DNA of 5,206 nt from a virus (taxonomy: Duplodnaviria > Heunggongvirae > Uroviricota > Caudoviricetes), in the IMG/VR virus record IMGVR_UViG_2690316148_000009; one strand, 5' to 3'. Positions 113-5,206 of the stretch are shown here, in pieces. How positions within the stretch are numbered: the first letter of the stretch is position 1; every line of letters begins with the position of its first letter. The notes below the pieces were generated by a model. The model was not told the origin of the DNA, searched no databases, and worked only from the letters and a program-made list of their open reading frames with translations. Made by a program: the position numbers and the translations under genes.

Positions 113-694
113 TTACCCTATAGGTGCTACTGGCCATTCAATATCCGGTGCAGTTGATGTATCAACACGGTTCAGCAACACCCGATACTTTTTCCAGGCT
201 TCCAGCAACAAGGTTTCTTTCTCCGTTGCGATCTCCAGATCCACAGCATCCTGAAGCGGCGCTATATGCTCACTGGCTACCTGCATCAGGCTGTTTTTTG
301 TTTCTTCCGCCTCCCGGATCCGGAACAGTTTTTCTGCTTCCGTATCCTTCACCCAGGCTGTGCCGTTCCACTTCTGAAACTCCCCTTCCGGGGATAACCA
401 GGTGACATTTTCCGGTAATGAGCCGAGTTCAGAAATAAATAACGCGTCGCCGGAAGCCACGTCATAAACCGTTTTACCCCGATGATCTTCAACGAGATGC
501 CACGATGACTCATCACTGTTGAAAACAGCCACGAAACCAGCCGGAATATCTGGCGGTGCAATATCGGTACTGTTTGCAGGCAGACCTGTATGAGGCGGAA
601 TATATGCGTCACCTTCACCAATAAATTCATTAGTTCCGGCCAGCAGGTTATAAATTTTTATGGTCCGTGCTTGTTCACTCATTCTGAATGCCAT
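113..694 (-). CDS. tfa: tail fiber assembly protein (lambda Tfa family chaperone)
   Basis: The 193-aa ORF begins [62 protein letters not shown]..., which I recognise as near-identical over most of its length to phage lambda Tfa (orf-194). Its ATG (694..692) overlaps the stf stop TAA (696..694) as TAATG, and a GTGAGG Shine-Dalgarno-like motif lies about 8 nt upstream. The position immediately downstream of stf is as in lambda. Confidence 0.9.
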
Positions 695-3600
695 TATGCG
701 AGCCTCACAATATAGTTAAATGCGATGTTTTTGACGGTGTTTTCCGCGTTACCAGCAGCGTTAACGGTGATGGTGTGTCCATGTGAACCAATCGCAACAG
801 AGTGCGTATGAGCACCAATACCGACAGTATGCGCGTGTGCACCCGCAGATGCTGCTGTGCCGGACAGTGAGTGTGTATGGTTTCCTTCTGAAGATGATTT
901 ACCTACCCATTGGGAGGTGCCACTGGTTAATGAGCCACTGATACCAACCTGATTAGTCCCGCTAACTTGAGTACTCCCTGCCGGAAACATTCCAGTAGGT
1001 TGACTCCCGCTATTCGTTCTGGGCCCAGTCTGACTATGTTGGTGGGCCCCAGCTGAACTTGTAGAGCCGCTCAGACTGTGCGTATGCGCCCCGGTGTTAT
1101 TCGTGGATTTAGTGCCGTAATCAAACGACGATGTGGTTTTCGTCCCCAAATCCGTACTGGATGCGCTGGCGCTGTGGGTGTGCGATTTAATGCCATCCTG
1201 TTCCTGAGACAATACGGCACGACCACTGGCGGGCTTGCCCTTAATCGTCCAGCCACGCATATCAGGGATCACGCCTGACGGATAAGCGGCTGCAAGTTTC
1301 GGGTAAGCAGATTTGTCAAAAGTCTGCCCCTGCATCAGGGCATAACCAGACGGAACGGTATCTGATGGCCACGGGATTGGTGCACCGACTGGATAAAACT
1401 CTGCAGGAGGATGAGCCGAGGTGTAAAGCTGCGCCCACGGCGACCAGTTTGCGTCGGTCGTATCCCGTCGTGAACGAATAAATGCCGGAGCATGAGCACC
1501 GCTTGTACCACTCCAGCCGATGAGTAACTCACCTTCGCCAACGGCTGTCATCCCTTTCAGGTGAATGATATTTCCATACGCTGTTGGATATCCGTTGTTA
1601 TACACCTCGTATAACTCAAGACCTGCTGCCCCCTGCGTATTGTCTGTCAGCGCGGCTACCCGACCTTTTGAAGCCAGATTAACTGATGATACTGCTGTTC
1701 CACCTGACGGTAGCGCCCCGATCTCTGATGCCGTTGGCTTATTTCTGGAGTTATAGTCCCTTCGCCAGCCAGGTGAATAATCTGTTCCGTGATTAATATA
1801 GGTAAACTGGGCGTTGGTTGTTCCGCCACCGCTGGATGTGGTCGGAGTGGTAATGCGGATCGTCATCGCTGACTTTATCCCCATTACTTCAATGACAGCT
1901 CCGGCGAGATGAATATTACCGCAGCCAGTATCAGTAATGATTTTATTATTGCCATAAGACCAGGAACCCTTGCACATCCAGTATGGATGGTTAAATGCTC
2001 CCTGAGAATCCAGCCACTCGATAAACTGTGCAGTCGTCCAGTTTCCTGTTGTTGTGCTTACTGACCCACCGAAGGCACGGCAGGCACCAATATTTTTCGT
2101 AAAGGTGTCTTTGCCAGGGATATCCGCACCGTTCTGATCTTTCTGCAGACGTTTCTCAGCATTGTCATTGGCTGCTTTTACTGCCTTTGGCGTTGCCGCC
2201 AGCGTTTCAGACGTGCTGTTGGTCGCGCTGCTTAGCTGGATTATCCCTTTCTGTGCTGTCGTTGCATCCTGTGCGGTGTATTTCCCGTTAGCCAGGTCAT
2301 ACGCGGCCTTAACGGCTTTTGGTGTTGCCGCCAGTGACTCGGAAGTGCTGTTAGTCGCACTACTGAGCTGTACTATCCCCTTTTTCGTCGTGCTCGCATC
2401 CTCAAGCGCCACGGCGGATGCAATATCCTCTGCCCGTTTTGCCGCTGTCTCAGCGCGCGTTGCTGCAGATTCCGCCGTACTTTTGCTCTGAGCTGCTGCC
2501 GTCGCACTACCAGCAGCCTCTGTCGCCTTCGTGGATGCCGTCGTGGCGCTGCCCTTCGCTGCTGACGCCTGTCTGGTCGCCTCATCTTTTGAAGCAGACG
2601 CCGATGATGCCGATGACGCCGCCGAACTGGCGGACGATGCGGCAGCCGTTTTTGAGGATTCTGCACGGGTTTCCGACGCTTTCGCGTTCGTTTCGGATGT
2701 CTTCGCTGCGGAAGCTGACCTCGCTGCTGCCGTGGCCTGCTCAGTGGCTTCGCCAGCCTTCGTTGTGGCTGTTGAAGCGGATGATGCGGCGCTTTCTGCC
2801 GATTTTCCGGCGGCGGTGGCACTGGCTGAGGCCTGCCCGGCACTTGTTGACGCGGCACTGGCAGATAATGCAGCCGCTGTTTTTGAACCTGCCGCAGCTG
2901 AGGCGCTCTGTCCCGCTGCTGTTTCAGAAGACTTAGCGTTCGTCTCGGACGTTTTTGCCGCCTTCGCGGAATTTCCTGCCGCCGTTGCCGAGGAAGCTGC
3001 ACTACTGGCACTTGATGATGCATTCGTTTCTGAAGATTTCGCTGCCTCTTTTGAGGCCGCCGCACCCCGTGCCGAGGTGGCAGCTTCTGACGCCTTCGTG
3101 GTCGCTGTGGATGCAGAAGTGGCTGCCGATTTTTGTGATGCTGCGGCATTCGTTTCTGACGTTTTCGCGGCACTGGCGCTGGTAGCTGCCGCGCTTTTTG
3201 ATGACTCTGCAGCAGCACTTTTTGCTGCTTCACGGGCCTTTGTCGATGCCGTTCCTGCGCTGGAAGACGCTGACTGAGCCGACGACGCGGCCTGTCCGGC
3301 TGACGTGCTGGCGGCACGTGCTGAGGCTGCAGCATCGGTTGCATGAGTTGCCGCCTCGCTGGCTGATTTTTTCGCGGCTGCCGTATTCTGTGCAACCGCG
3401 GAGGCGTTACGTGACACCTCTTCCACCATCTGCTCAAAGCGGCGCAGTGCCTCCGGTCGGACATCATCCTCCGTCATGGCACCGAGAAAATCATTCAGCG
3501 TACCTGGTCTGGAACCTTCATAGACGGTAATGGTCCCGGCATGTGAAGGCGGAAAACCTTCAACCAGCAGGGTGACGCTGTACTGACCATGCTCAACATC

Positions 3601-3753
3601 CATGCTGTAACGTCCGGCTTCATCCGGATTTTCAGAGGCCACCGTGTTCACCACCATCGTGCTGCTGGTTCGTCTGGCCTTCAGCACAATGGTGCAGTTC
3701 TGTACTGGTTTTCCTGTGCCATCTTTAAGCACGCCAGAAATTTTTACTGTCAT
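694..3753 (-). CDS. stf: side tail fiber protein (lambda Stf family), intact and mosaic
   Basis: The 1019-aa ORF has an N-terminus [22 protein letters not shown]... and a C-terminus ...[31 protein letters not shown] that match lambda Stf as I recall it. It contains a long Ala/Ser/Thr-rich region with reiterated KTSETNA-type motifs, a duplicated KGI(V/I)[11 protein letters not shown](S/T)[11 protein letters not shown] unit, and C-terminal GAHTHS/GNHTHS/GAHAHT/GSHGHT His-x-His repeats typical of T4 gp37-like fiber tips. A GGTGGA Shine-Dalgarno motif sits 5 nt upstream of the ATG. The gene lies between lom and tfa as in lambda. Confidence 0.9.
2164..2382. repeat. tandem direct duplication of a ~132-bp unit inside stf (second copy partial)
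   Basis: Plus-strand segments around 2171..2268 and 2303..2400 align with a 132-bp offset at high identity. They encode [29 protein letters not shown]... (Stf aa 458-501) and [29 protein letters not shown]... (aa 502-530). Confidence 0.7.
2419..3408. repeat. GC-rich low-complexity coding repeat region of stf (Ala/Ser/Thr-rich with reiterated KTSETNA-like motifs)
   Basis: Stf aa ~116-445 is dominated by A, S and T with recurring motifs ([55 protein letters not shown]). This degenerate repetition is what produces the long spurious ORFs in the other reading frames on both strands. Confidence 0.65.
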
Positions 3754-3758
3754 ACTTT

Positions 3759-3764
3759 TCCACC
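3759..3764 (-). promoter_or_regulatory. Shine-Dalgarno sequence for stf (GGTGGA)
   Basis: The minus strand reads GGTGGAAAAGTATG; GGTGGA lies 5 nt upstream of the stf ATG. Confidence 0.5.
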
Positions 3765-3800
3765 AATAAAAAAAGCCCGCAGCAGTGACGCCACGGGCTT
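3765..3800 (-). terminator. putative rho-independent terminator downstream of lom, immediately upstream of the stf RBS
   Basis: On the minus strand the sequence is AAGCCCG-(14-nt loop)-CGGGCTT, a 7-bp stem (3800..3794 paired with 3779..3773), followed by TTTTTATT (3772..3765). It lies about 105 nt after the lom stop codon. The 14-nt loop is long, so the actual structure may differ. Confidence 0.5.
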
Positions 3801-3904
3801 CAGGACAGTGTAACTTTACGTTTCCTCAAACGCAGTTCACCCCATAAGGTGGATGAACCTGCGTATCATAACAATATTTACAGAAGATAAATCGGCGTCT
3901 GTTG

Positions 3905-4504
3905 TCAGATACGGTATCCGATACCAACAATAAATGCATCCGTTCGCCAGTCACCACTACCGGAACCTTCATAAGCAAGGTCAATGGTCACGGATTCGGT
4001 CGGGTTAAACTGCACGCCAGCCCCCCACGCCAGAGACGTGTTGCTGTGGCGACCGTCATCACTTCCGGTCAGCACATCGTGCGTTTTCCCCTTGTTGTCA
4101 GTTACGCGGAGATAATCCCCGGAGAAAGTCGACACACGGCTGTAAGCCACACCCACCATCGCATACGCGCTGAACCATTCATTCACGCGTACAGACGGCC
4201 CCGCCATCACGCTGAACCAGCGGTTACGCACGGAATCTTCATGCCAGCGGGTATCGCTGTAGTGCGTTTTTTGCTCATCCTCAGCATTGGCATAACTGAA
4301 GGACGTAATCAGCCCCAGCGCGTCCGTAAACTCATAACGGTATTTCACGTTAATCCCGTTCAGATTATCGCTGCCGGGAGCGTTCGTACGGGCATGAAGA
4401 TACCCCGCGCTCAGTGTGGACTGATGTTCAGACGCCCATGCAGGCGCACCGGATACGGCCAGGCAAATGGCTGCGGACAAAATGGCTGCACAAACTTTAC
4501 GCAT
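3905..4504 (-). CDS. lom: Ail/Lom/OmpX/PagC-family outer membrane beta-barrel protein (phage moron, lysogenic conversion)
   Basis: The 199-aa ORF has a signal-peptide-like N-terminus MRKVCAAILSAAICLAVSGAPAWA followed by motifs shared with lambda Lom as I recall it (GINVKYRYE, SAYAM(V/A)GVA(Y/H)SR, AYEGSGSGDWRTD, GIGY near the C-terminus). A GAGAGG Shine-Dalgarno motif lies 5 nt upstream of the ATG. The position between J and stf is the same as lambda lom. Confidence 0.9.
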   Translation of the reverse strand: MRKVCAAILSAAICLAVSGAPAWASEHQSTLSAGYLHARTNAPGSDNLNGINVKYRYEFTDALGLITSFSYANAEDEQKTHYSDTRWHEDSVRNRWFSVMAGPSVRVNEWFSAYAMVGVAYSRVSTFSGDYLRVTDNKGKTHDVLTGSDDGRHSNTSLAWGAGVQFNPTESVTIDLAYEGSGSGDWRTDAFIVGIGYRI

Positions 4505-4509
4505 AATTA

Positions 4510-4515
4510 CCTCTC
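4510..4515 (-). promoter_or_regulatory. Shine-Dalgarno sequence for lom (GAGAGG)
   Basis: The minus strand reads CGAGAGGTAATTATG; GAGAGG lies 5 nt upstream of the lom ATG. Confidence 0.55.
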
Positions 4516-4525
4516 GCTTTTCTGC

Positions 4526-4552
4526 AATAAAAAAGGCGCCATTTCTGGCGCC
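4526..4552 (-). terminator. putative rho-independent terminator downstream of J and upstream of lom
   Basis: On the minus strand the sequence is GGCGCCA-GAAA-TGGCGCC, a perfect 7-bp GC-rich stem (4552..4546 paired with 4541..4535) with a GNRA-type tetraloop, followed immediately by TTTTTTATT (4534..4526). It begins about 20 nt after the J stop codon. Confidence 0.6.
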
Positions 4553-4571
4553 CGTATATGGGTTATAAAAT

Positions 4572-5206
<635 letters not shown>

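Follow-up and report, generated by a model that had tools for sequence, protein, structure and literature searches.

The lom gene, known since 1979, encodes in lambda (NP_040601) a member of the Ail/Lom family of outer-membrane proteins. Yersinia Ail (PDB 3qra and 3qrc) and E. coli OmpX (1qj8 and 1qj9) have the same eight-stranded fold as Lom, are encoded by chromosomal genes and comprise about 150 mature residues. In the older literature, as cited by later papers, lambda lom is counted among the few genes expressed in lysogens; more recent work reports that lysogens make Lom and that its level climbs sharply late in infection, and its authors propose a role in the exclusion of kin phages (PMC12366544). 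In the same study, over-expressed lambda Lom protected strongly against lambda-vir and not against T7, although this protection needed over-expression and lysogens were unprotected (PMC12366544). Plaque formation by lambda does not need lom (PMC10695390), and in phi24B the expression of the gene is the same in the lysogen as in induced cultures (PMC3342100). Here, we describe a lom gene in a viral DNA stretch of 5,206 nucleotides (the window), compare it with these systems and weigh the roles that its product may play. The features of the window that frame the gene are as follows.

3905..4504, minus strand: lom coding sequence, 199 amino acids plus a TGA stop, ATG start (ORF listing, Pfam, PHROG, PDB sequence search and fold match)
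4510..4515, minus strand: Shine-Dalgarno sequence GAGAGG, 5 nt before the lom ATG (direct reading; conserved in lambda)
4572..5206, minus strand: 3' end of J, partial, C-terminal receptor-binding region (translation matches the lambda and E2348/69 J C-termini)
694..3753, minus strand: stf, side tail fibre gene, 1019 amino acids (PF08400, PF03406 (Phage_fiber_2) and PF07484 (Collar); PHROG 295)
113..694, minus strand: tfa, tail fibre assembly gene, 193 amino acids (PF02413; PHROG 105)

Read 5' to 3' on the minus strand, J ends with its stop codon at 4574-4572, lom follows after a spacer of 67 nt, and a further spacer of 151 nt leads to stf and then tfa. An earlier note on this DNA, made from the letters alone, had placed an Ail/Lom-family gene with its own Shine-Dalgarno sequence between J and stf, and each of these points agrees with what we found: J precedes the gene, stf (694..3753) follows it on the same strand, and GAGAGG lies at 4515..4510. 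The span 3905-4504 given there for the gene is exact; the strand, which that note left unnamed, is minus.

The assignment to the family is secure. The Pfam profile PF06316 (Ail_Lom) covers the product over its full length (E 1e-125), scoring 417.5 bits where the cutoff is 23, with residues 1-198 aligned to profile positions 1-198 of 199. The product also belongs to PHROG 108, 'Lom outer membrane protein' (E 1e-108), and OMP_b-brl is a weaker Pfam match that overlaps Ail_Lom. In a sequence search of the PDB the best match was lambda Lom itself (chain 9wso_C; E 1e-47 over residues 1-198), followed by OmpX and Yersinia Ail at about 1e-19. The protein fell short of the NCBIfam equivalog cutoffs for the Rck type (NF011777; 110 against 258) and for OmpX (NF006917; 102 against 176), and it is a relative within the family and an orthologue of neither. 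Its gene lies in a lambdoid tail module with J immediately ahead of it and stf behind, which is the place of a phage Lom. A long plus-strand ORF (3902..4579; 225 amino acids) overlaps the lom region and could in principle be the real feature, with the minus-strand ORF incidental; however, it has no Pfam match at E 0.1, whereas the minus-strand product has the Ail_Lom match given above and an Ail/Lom annotation in thousands of genomes, and the chance that the plus-strand ORF is the true gene is negligible. Two small ORFs that also overlap the lom region gave no Pfam match. Taken for its identity and architecture, and leaving its role aside, the gene is very probably a functional-looking lom of a lambda-like E. 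coli or Shigella prophage.

It is also an ordinary, very common and already annotated gene, and what is added here to the known picture of lom is small and descriptive, namely the borders of its cassette, the covariation of the flanking hairpins and an unusual C-terminal Ile. A megablast search with a 1-kb lom region matched 4795 of 5426 complete E. coli genomes (88%), with a single match spanning at least 80% of the query in 1316 genomes, and 93% of the window is matched at 96.6% identity in complete E. coli genomes. Similar arrangements are also present in isolated temperate phages, and the Lom of phage PhiR40_1 is 97% identical to that of the window. NCBI assemblies encode the exact 199-residue protein on at least 11 contigs; of five contigs examined, all have J upstream and three (L163, L165 and L166) have an stf-type gene annotated downstream, and the J gene on contigs with the identical Lom carries PF09327 and PF12421 (Ig_GpJ_C).

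The closest known system for comparison is a lambdoid prophage of E. coli E2348/69 (O127:H6). Its Lom (WP_001233154.1, annotated Ail/Lom) shares 197 of 199 residues with the window protein, which has Ala16 in place of Ser and a C-terminal Ile in place of Phe, and the two loci share the J-lom-stf order, spacers of 67 and 151 nt and both flanking hairpins without a difference. The stf genes differ beyond the N-terminal domain, homology stopping at window position 3404. The E2348/69 prophage also served to interpret J, which in the window is interrupted by two runs of N (4695-4744 and 4954-5049) of 50 and 96 positions, where the E2348/69 counterpart has 13 and 76 nt. As these length differences exactly account for the apparent changes of frame, the window J is probably intact behind its N runs, which are of arbitrary length, and real frameshift mutations in J were ruled out.

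Lambda Lom, by comparison, is 41% identical to the window Lom over its full length (BLASTP). The two genes are alike in family, in position between J and stf, in encoding a signal peptide and eight strands, and in having a hairpin with a U-tract on both sides. Identity amounts to 50% in the signal peptide, 34% in the mature N-terminal half and 53% in the C-terminal half, and rises to 91% in strand 2 (LNGINVKYRYE) and 100% in the GSGDWRTD of the last loop. Variation is greatest in loop 1, where lambda Lom is eight residues longer, and towards the outer ends of the long beta3-beta4 and beta5-beta6 hairpins. The earlier note had described this copy as clearly diverged from lambda Lom in its N-terminal half; the N-terminal half is indeed the less similar one, but divergence extends through the whole protein and spares only strand 2 and the last loop and strand. 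A closer phage relative is the phage 434 Lom, present in the hybrid lambda h434 imm21 (OM418627); this protein is 88% identical to that of the window (175 of 198 residues). In OM418627 the receptor-binding end of J, lom and stf all come from 434, on one side of the crossover, and that J end is only about 50% identical to the J end of the window. As a side observation, Lom is itself mosaic: some database proteins combine a lambda-like signal peptide and loop 1 with a remainder of the window type.

The N-terminus and the fold of the protein were examined with residue rules and a structure model.

4433..4504, minus strand: region coding for the signal peptide, residues 1-24, MRKVCAAILSAAICLAVSGAPAWA (assigned by charge, hydrophobicity and Ala at -3 and -1)

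By these rules, the product has an n-region MRK, a hydrophobic core of 14 residues and A-W-A at positions -3 to -1, and cleavage is predicted after AWA24 and before Ser25 (AWA-SE); a lipobox was looked for in the N-terminus and none was found. The mature OmpX and Ail chains align to the window Lom from residue 25-29. A single-sequence AlphaFold model was unusable (pLDDT 45.5), and a model built from a 25-sequence alignment was used instead (pLDDT 68.5 overall, 74-87 through most of the barrel). At this moderate model confidence, the layout is a helix at residues 2-18, corresponding to the signal region, followed by eight strands. A Foldseek search of the PDB with the model returned OmpX (1qj9) and Ail (3qrc and 3qra) at the top, with probability 1.0 and a target TM-score of about 0.72, and OmpA barrels ranked after them. 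The product is thus predicted to be an eight-stranded antiparallel outer-membrane barrel of the Ail/OmpX type, as is also expected from its sequence homology to Lom, OmpX and Ail chains of known structure. A signal peptide, a barrel prediction and Ail/Lom similarity, any of whose absence the earlier note had named as grounds for giving up its reading, were all found. At about 30% identity, Lom differs from Ail and OmpX in its longer extracellular hairpins, which are variable in sequence, and in its GSGSGDWRTD loop. The last loop, EGSGSGDWRTD, is specific to Lom and is the same in lambda, and its GSGDWRTD is nearly invariant among 87 distinct Lom sequences.

The C-terminus deserves separate comment. 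It reads ...A-F-I-V-G-I-G-Y-R-I, and the beta-signal positions -1, -3, -5, -7 and -9 are I, Y, I, V and F, so the hydrophobic pattern is kept. The terminal residue, however, is Ile and not the aromatic residue, usually Phe, that is typical of outer-membrane proteins, though not defining for Ail/Lom. We parsed 140 Lom loci from viral contigs, including the window, lambda and E2348/69; the terminal residue is Phe in 134 of these, as it is in 24 of 24 aligned homologues, and the only loci that end in Ile are the window and three viral contigs nearly identical to it (L004, L005 and L007). A C-terminal aromatic residue is well known to be needed for efficient assembly of outer-membrane proteins, and its loss can lower the assembly efficiency of porins. 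Because its relatives have Phe at this position, assembly of the window Lom may be less efficient. A stronger version of this reading is that the allele is weakened or decaying, the change from Phe to Ile impairing recognition by BAM so that little assembled Lom is made, and the rarity of the Ile terminus would agree with it. However, the reading frame, the signal peptide and the alternating hydrophobic C-terminal pattern are all intact, Ile remains hydrophobic, and the variant persists, since the same protein was found in those 11 or more contigs from several assemblies. At low expression, such terminal variants of other porins still assemble. We therefore regard decay as improbable. As a natural variant, the rare change from Phe to Ile could also be used to probe the signal for outer-membrane assembly.

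The DNA on either side of lom contains further features, which also define the borders of a cassette.

4524..4553, minus strand: terminator-like hairpin GGGCGCC-AGAA-(A)TGGCGCC with T-tract, in the J-lom spacer (scan; fold z -2.4)
3764..3801, minus strand: strong terminator-like hairpin with T-tract, in the lom-stf spacer (scan; fold z -3.3)
3831..3864, minus strand: additional stem-loop in the 151-nt lom 3' untranslated spacer (fold analysis)
4525..4534, minus strand: left 10-nt direct repeat TTTTTTATTG, U-tract of the J terminator, left cassette border (exact repeat; L232 junction)
3764..3773, minus strand: right 10-nt direct repeat TTTTTTATTG, U-tract of the lom terminator, right cassette border (exact repeat; L232 junction)

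The scan for hairpins covered window positions 3600-4700, with z-scores taken relative to shuffles, and it detected two terminator-like sites, both on the coding strand and one in each lom spacer, which it placed at 4553..4534 and 3801..3772. The hairpin at 3764..3801 has a stem of 12-13 bp with seven G-C pairs and ends about 10 nt before the stf ribosome site. The number of sites is not above the shuffle expectation for this range (1.0 +/- 1.2), but the hairpins go beyond chance because they are placed in both spacers and are conserved with compensatory changes. Among the related loci, a hairpin with a U-tract was present in all 30 distinct J-lom spacers and in 33 of 35 distinct lom-stf spacers, in agreement with the bracketing structures described in the earlier note. 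The stem variants GGCGCC/GGCGCC, GGCACC/GGTGCC and GGCGTC/GACGCC are compensatory, and the lambda J-lom stem, CGTCCG/CGGGCG, is unrelated in sequence. An Rfam search of the whole window (E <= 1) gave no match in either lom spacer. The lom-stf spacer measures 151 nt in 18 related loci against 64 nt in most, lambda included. The extra 103 nt of this 3' spacer occurs in 1606 of 5426 E. coli genomes and is tied to lom; a dispersed repeat was ruled out, with a median of one copy per genome and linkage to lom.

How this segment sits between its neighbours became clear from relatives without lom. With the conserved stf N-terminal domain as query, 75 loci had sufficient upstream DNA; a full lom lay directly upstream of stf in 67 of them and a lom fragment in three, while in two loci (L232 and L245) lom is absent and no more than 58 nt lie between J and stf. 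The L232 junction corresponds to the left flank of the window J-lom spacer up to TTTTTTATT and to the right flank of the lom-stf spacer after it, and it carries a hairpin of the J-lom type. The window contains exactly two copies of the 10-mer TTTTTTATTG, one at each border, where 0.02 copies would be expected. Because the lom-less relatives join J to stf at a shared U-tract, lom with its 3' spacer and terminator is a discrete cassette of 761 nt bounded by TTTTTTATTG, and this cassette sits in the U-tract of a J-stf terminator that exists even without lom. This gives a clean definition of the lom cassette, as a U-tract insertion between J and stf with covarying flanking hairpins, from sequence comparison.

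On such evidence the cassette conforms to the textbook picture of a moron, in the sense of Juhala and Hendrix. It is an extra gene between genes that are adjacent in relatives (L232 and L245), and it has, at the level of its sequence, a downstream terminator of its own (3801..3764; 33 of 35 spacers). A further hallmark, expression from the repressed prophage, has been described for the lom genes of lambda and phi24B. The remaining hallmarks of a moron are its own promoter, for which the consensus scan was a weak negative, and a distinct base composition; the GC fraction is 0.548 in lom, 0.55 in stf, 0.486 in tfa and 0.46-0.50 in the J fragments, so that base composition gave no signal of a foreign origin of lom relative to its neighbours. 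The semi-autonomous cassette proposed in the earlier note thus stands as far as a discrete, removable unit is concerned, but a promoter of its own and a break in GC were not found.

The search for a promoter bears directly on how the gene may be expressed. Within about 600 nt upstream of lom, scans of the coding strand detected no sigma-70-like promoter, either in the window (3600-4700) or in the un-masked E2348/69 homologue (L001, 5900-7400), and autonomous transcription of lom is for this reason unproven. The upstream U-tract ends a mere 20 nt or so before the lom ATG. By analogy with what is reported for lambda, the simplest reading would be antiterminated late read-through together with a low basal level in the lysogen. 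If the window prophage behaves as lambda does, lom would be transcribed mainly within the late operon by Q-modified polymerase, which would read through both lom-flanking terminators, and a low level would be made in the lysogen. The product would be exported by Sec, cut by signal peptidase I and inserted by BAM.

What Lom does once it is in the outer membrane is less certain. One possibility, and the one taken up in the earlier note, is lysogenic conversion, in which Lom made from the repressed prophage would help the bacterium, within an animal host, to adhere or to resist serum in the manner of Ail, Rck and PagC. Membership in Ail_Lom and the weaker, below-cutoff similarity to the Rck-type and OmpX models fit this idea, as do the equal expression of phi24B lom in lysogen and induced culture noted above and the fact that the closest Lom relatives lie in prophages of pathogenic strains, adjoining T3SS effector genes. 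In addition, later papers cite a study in which lambda Lom, expressed in lysogens, made cells adhere better to human buccal cells (Vica Pacheco, 1997). However, this adhesion evidence comes from one study, done in K-12 with the Lom of lambda, whose identity to the window protein is 41%, and the Rck and OmpX scores lie far under their equivalog cutoffs. Furthermore, no promoter was found upstream of lom, the gene is present in 88% of complete E. coli genomes and thus extends beyond pathogens, and both its fixed place beside the J receptor-binding end and the late burst of expression in lambda are left unexplained. For the window allele, adhesion and serum resistance would be associations carried over from the family, and we consider lysogenic conversion a serious possibility but an unlikely one.

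The likeliest role, in our view, is receptor masking, although we hold it tentatively and would not put it at quite an even chance. The exposed hairpins of Lom would bind an outer-membrane phage receptor in the same cell, receptor-bound Lom would reduce adsorption of the phage's own kin and so bring about superinfection exclusion, and such masking would also keep progeny from being lost to cells that are lysing. In lambda, LamB appears to be masked by Lom in this way. Both proteins, lambda Lom and the maltoporin LamB, which is the lambda receptor, are present in PDB entry 9wso; the alternative that 9wso is a Lom-J or Lom-Stf complex was ruled out, the entry being listed for LamB and lacking for the J and Stf sequences. 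A literature search for a paper on PDB 9wso or on a Lom-LamB complex found none. Together with the protection experiments, the lambda Lom data speak for receptor masking no less than for adhesion, and the textbook label of 'adhesin' may be outdated, because Lom and LamB share a PDB entry and lambda Lom protects only against lambda; the receptor targeted by the common non-lambda Lom types then becomes a concrete question that can be tested. Phages are known to encode blockers of their own receptor: Cor (HK022, phi80 and N15) and Llp (T5) act in this way on FhuA, and offer a works-like analogy with Lom. They too are small envelope proteins encoded near a receptor-binding tail gene, HK022 Cor being an annotated moron about 1 kb downstream of J. 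In contrast to Lom, Cor and Llp are unrelated small lipoproteins and not beta-barrels, and no homology is claimed.

A different proposal starts from the lytic cycle, namely that Lom acts in lysis together with the holin. Protein clusters of Lom and holin are co-transferred among lambdoid phages and are strongly expressed in the lytic cycle (PMC9836094), but lom is dispensable for lambda plaques (PMC10695390), no mechanistic link is known to join an outer-membrane barrel to an inner-membrane holin, and the window has no holin gene. We consider this very improbable, and the probability that remains for the role is taken up by weak or no function and by other ideas such as this one.

If Lom masks the receptor that J binds, the two might be expected to vary together, and receptor masking can be set against the association of J and Lom across related loci. 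The sample was 78 distinct loci drawn from the best 80 loci per query, which makes it biased, and the J end and lom are physically adjacent in it. Mantel correlations with Lom distance were 0.42 for the last 150 residues of J, 0.26 for the J core and 0.15 for the stf N-terminus, and differing Lom types were found in 1 of 664 pairs with the same J end against 81 of 644 pairs with the same J core. In this sample, lambda Lom occurs only with the lambda-type, LamB-binding J end, whereas the window type occurs with several J ends: among pairs of window-type Loms (less than 10% divergence), J ends were more than 30% different in 581 of 1300, including the 434 type. A match of one Lom to one receptor is thus not supported for the window type, because near-identical Loms accompany strongly different J ends, and we set aside the proposal of one Lom type per J receptor-binding type. 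The asymmetry can be explained by physical linkage and faster diversification of the J end. The association of the J end with Lom is compatible with functional coupling and is not proof of it.

A more specific form of receptor masking would have the J end and lom travel together as a matched pair, one to bind and one to mask. The window Lom would then mask a protein other than LamB, for example the OmpC-type receptor of 434, the phage with the 88% identical Lom, and the variable hairpins would set the specificity. We regard this as rather unlikely.

The lom gene is not a constant feature of the interval between J and stf. In two related lambdoid loci, L232 (2442-2501) and L245, stf follows directly after J without lom, and both keep the hairpin/U-tract on the J side. 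The Lom proteins are themselves mosaic: in the protein alignment (A4), four database homologues (P0102, P0107, P0112 and P0073) carry a lambda-like signal peptide and a long loop 1, joined to a remainder of the window type. In phage D2 (OM475427 18675-18791, hit H45), 39 residues match the C-terminus of Lom with 72% identity and lie within sequence whose annotation is host specificity protein J; this match may be a lom remnant. Two draft assemblies that encode a Lom identical to that of the window contain further lom sequence. One contig (L162, GCA_001258035.1, 2287-6600) contains a tandem array of the form J'-lom'(160 aa)-stf'-J'-lom, and the other (L164, 8145-8447) has an additional antisense Ail_Lom fragment. 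Either may reflect a local duplication or an artefact of assembly.

The last residue of the window's Lom (199; 3905-3907) is Ile, at a position where Phe is almost universal. A C-terminal Ile was seen in four of the 140 Lom loci, namely the window, L004, L005 and L007.

In the prophage of E. coli E2348/69 (L001 1-3261) and the arm of lambda h434 imm21 that derives from 434 (L161 6427-8597), lom-stf is followed after a few kb by T3SS effector genes (nleA, nleH and nleB/nleC-like genes). Thus, the tail-end region gathers other cargo genes too.

The spacer between lom and stf is 151 nt long in the window, compared with 64 nt in most relatives, and includes an extra structure:

3864-3831, minus strand: extra stable stem-loop, within the lom 3' spacer segment (window 3802-3904)

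This 103-nt segment is present in 1606 of 5426 E. coli genomes, mostly as a single copy. Among the 12 listed records, none has an annotated feature under this segment, and it has no match in Rfam.

High identity to the E2348/69 prophage ends at about window position 3404, just past the conserved N-terminal domain of stf. This position is a mosaic joint, with the remaining stf and tfa derived from a different lineage. Residues ~130-460 of stf (window ~2370-3360) form a repeat region of about 330 residues, rich in Ala, Ser and Thr, in which GC content is as high as 0.62, AT skew is strong and long spurious ORFs run in other frames. Two sub-threshold matches to Rfam isrG also fall there, scoring 25.6 and 18.8 bits against a gathering score of 100. 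A stronger Rfam match lies in tfa:

153-351, minus strand: full-length hit for the candidate E. coli small RNA IS009, at 218 bits against a gathering score of 117

As this match is entirely within the tail fibre assembly coding sequence (113-694), the Rfam family may simply have been modelled on prophage tfa.

Finally, J is interrupted by two runs of N:

4695-4744: 50 nt of N (13 nt in the E2348/69 homologue)
4954-5049: 96 nt of N (76 nt in the E2348/69 homologue)

Relative to that homologue, these runs preserve neither length nor reading frame, and they introduce spurious frameshifts into J.
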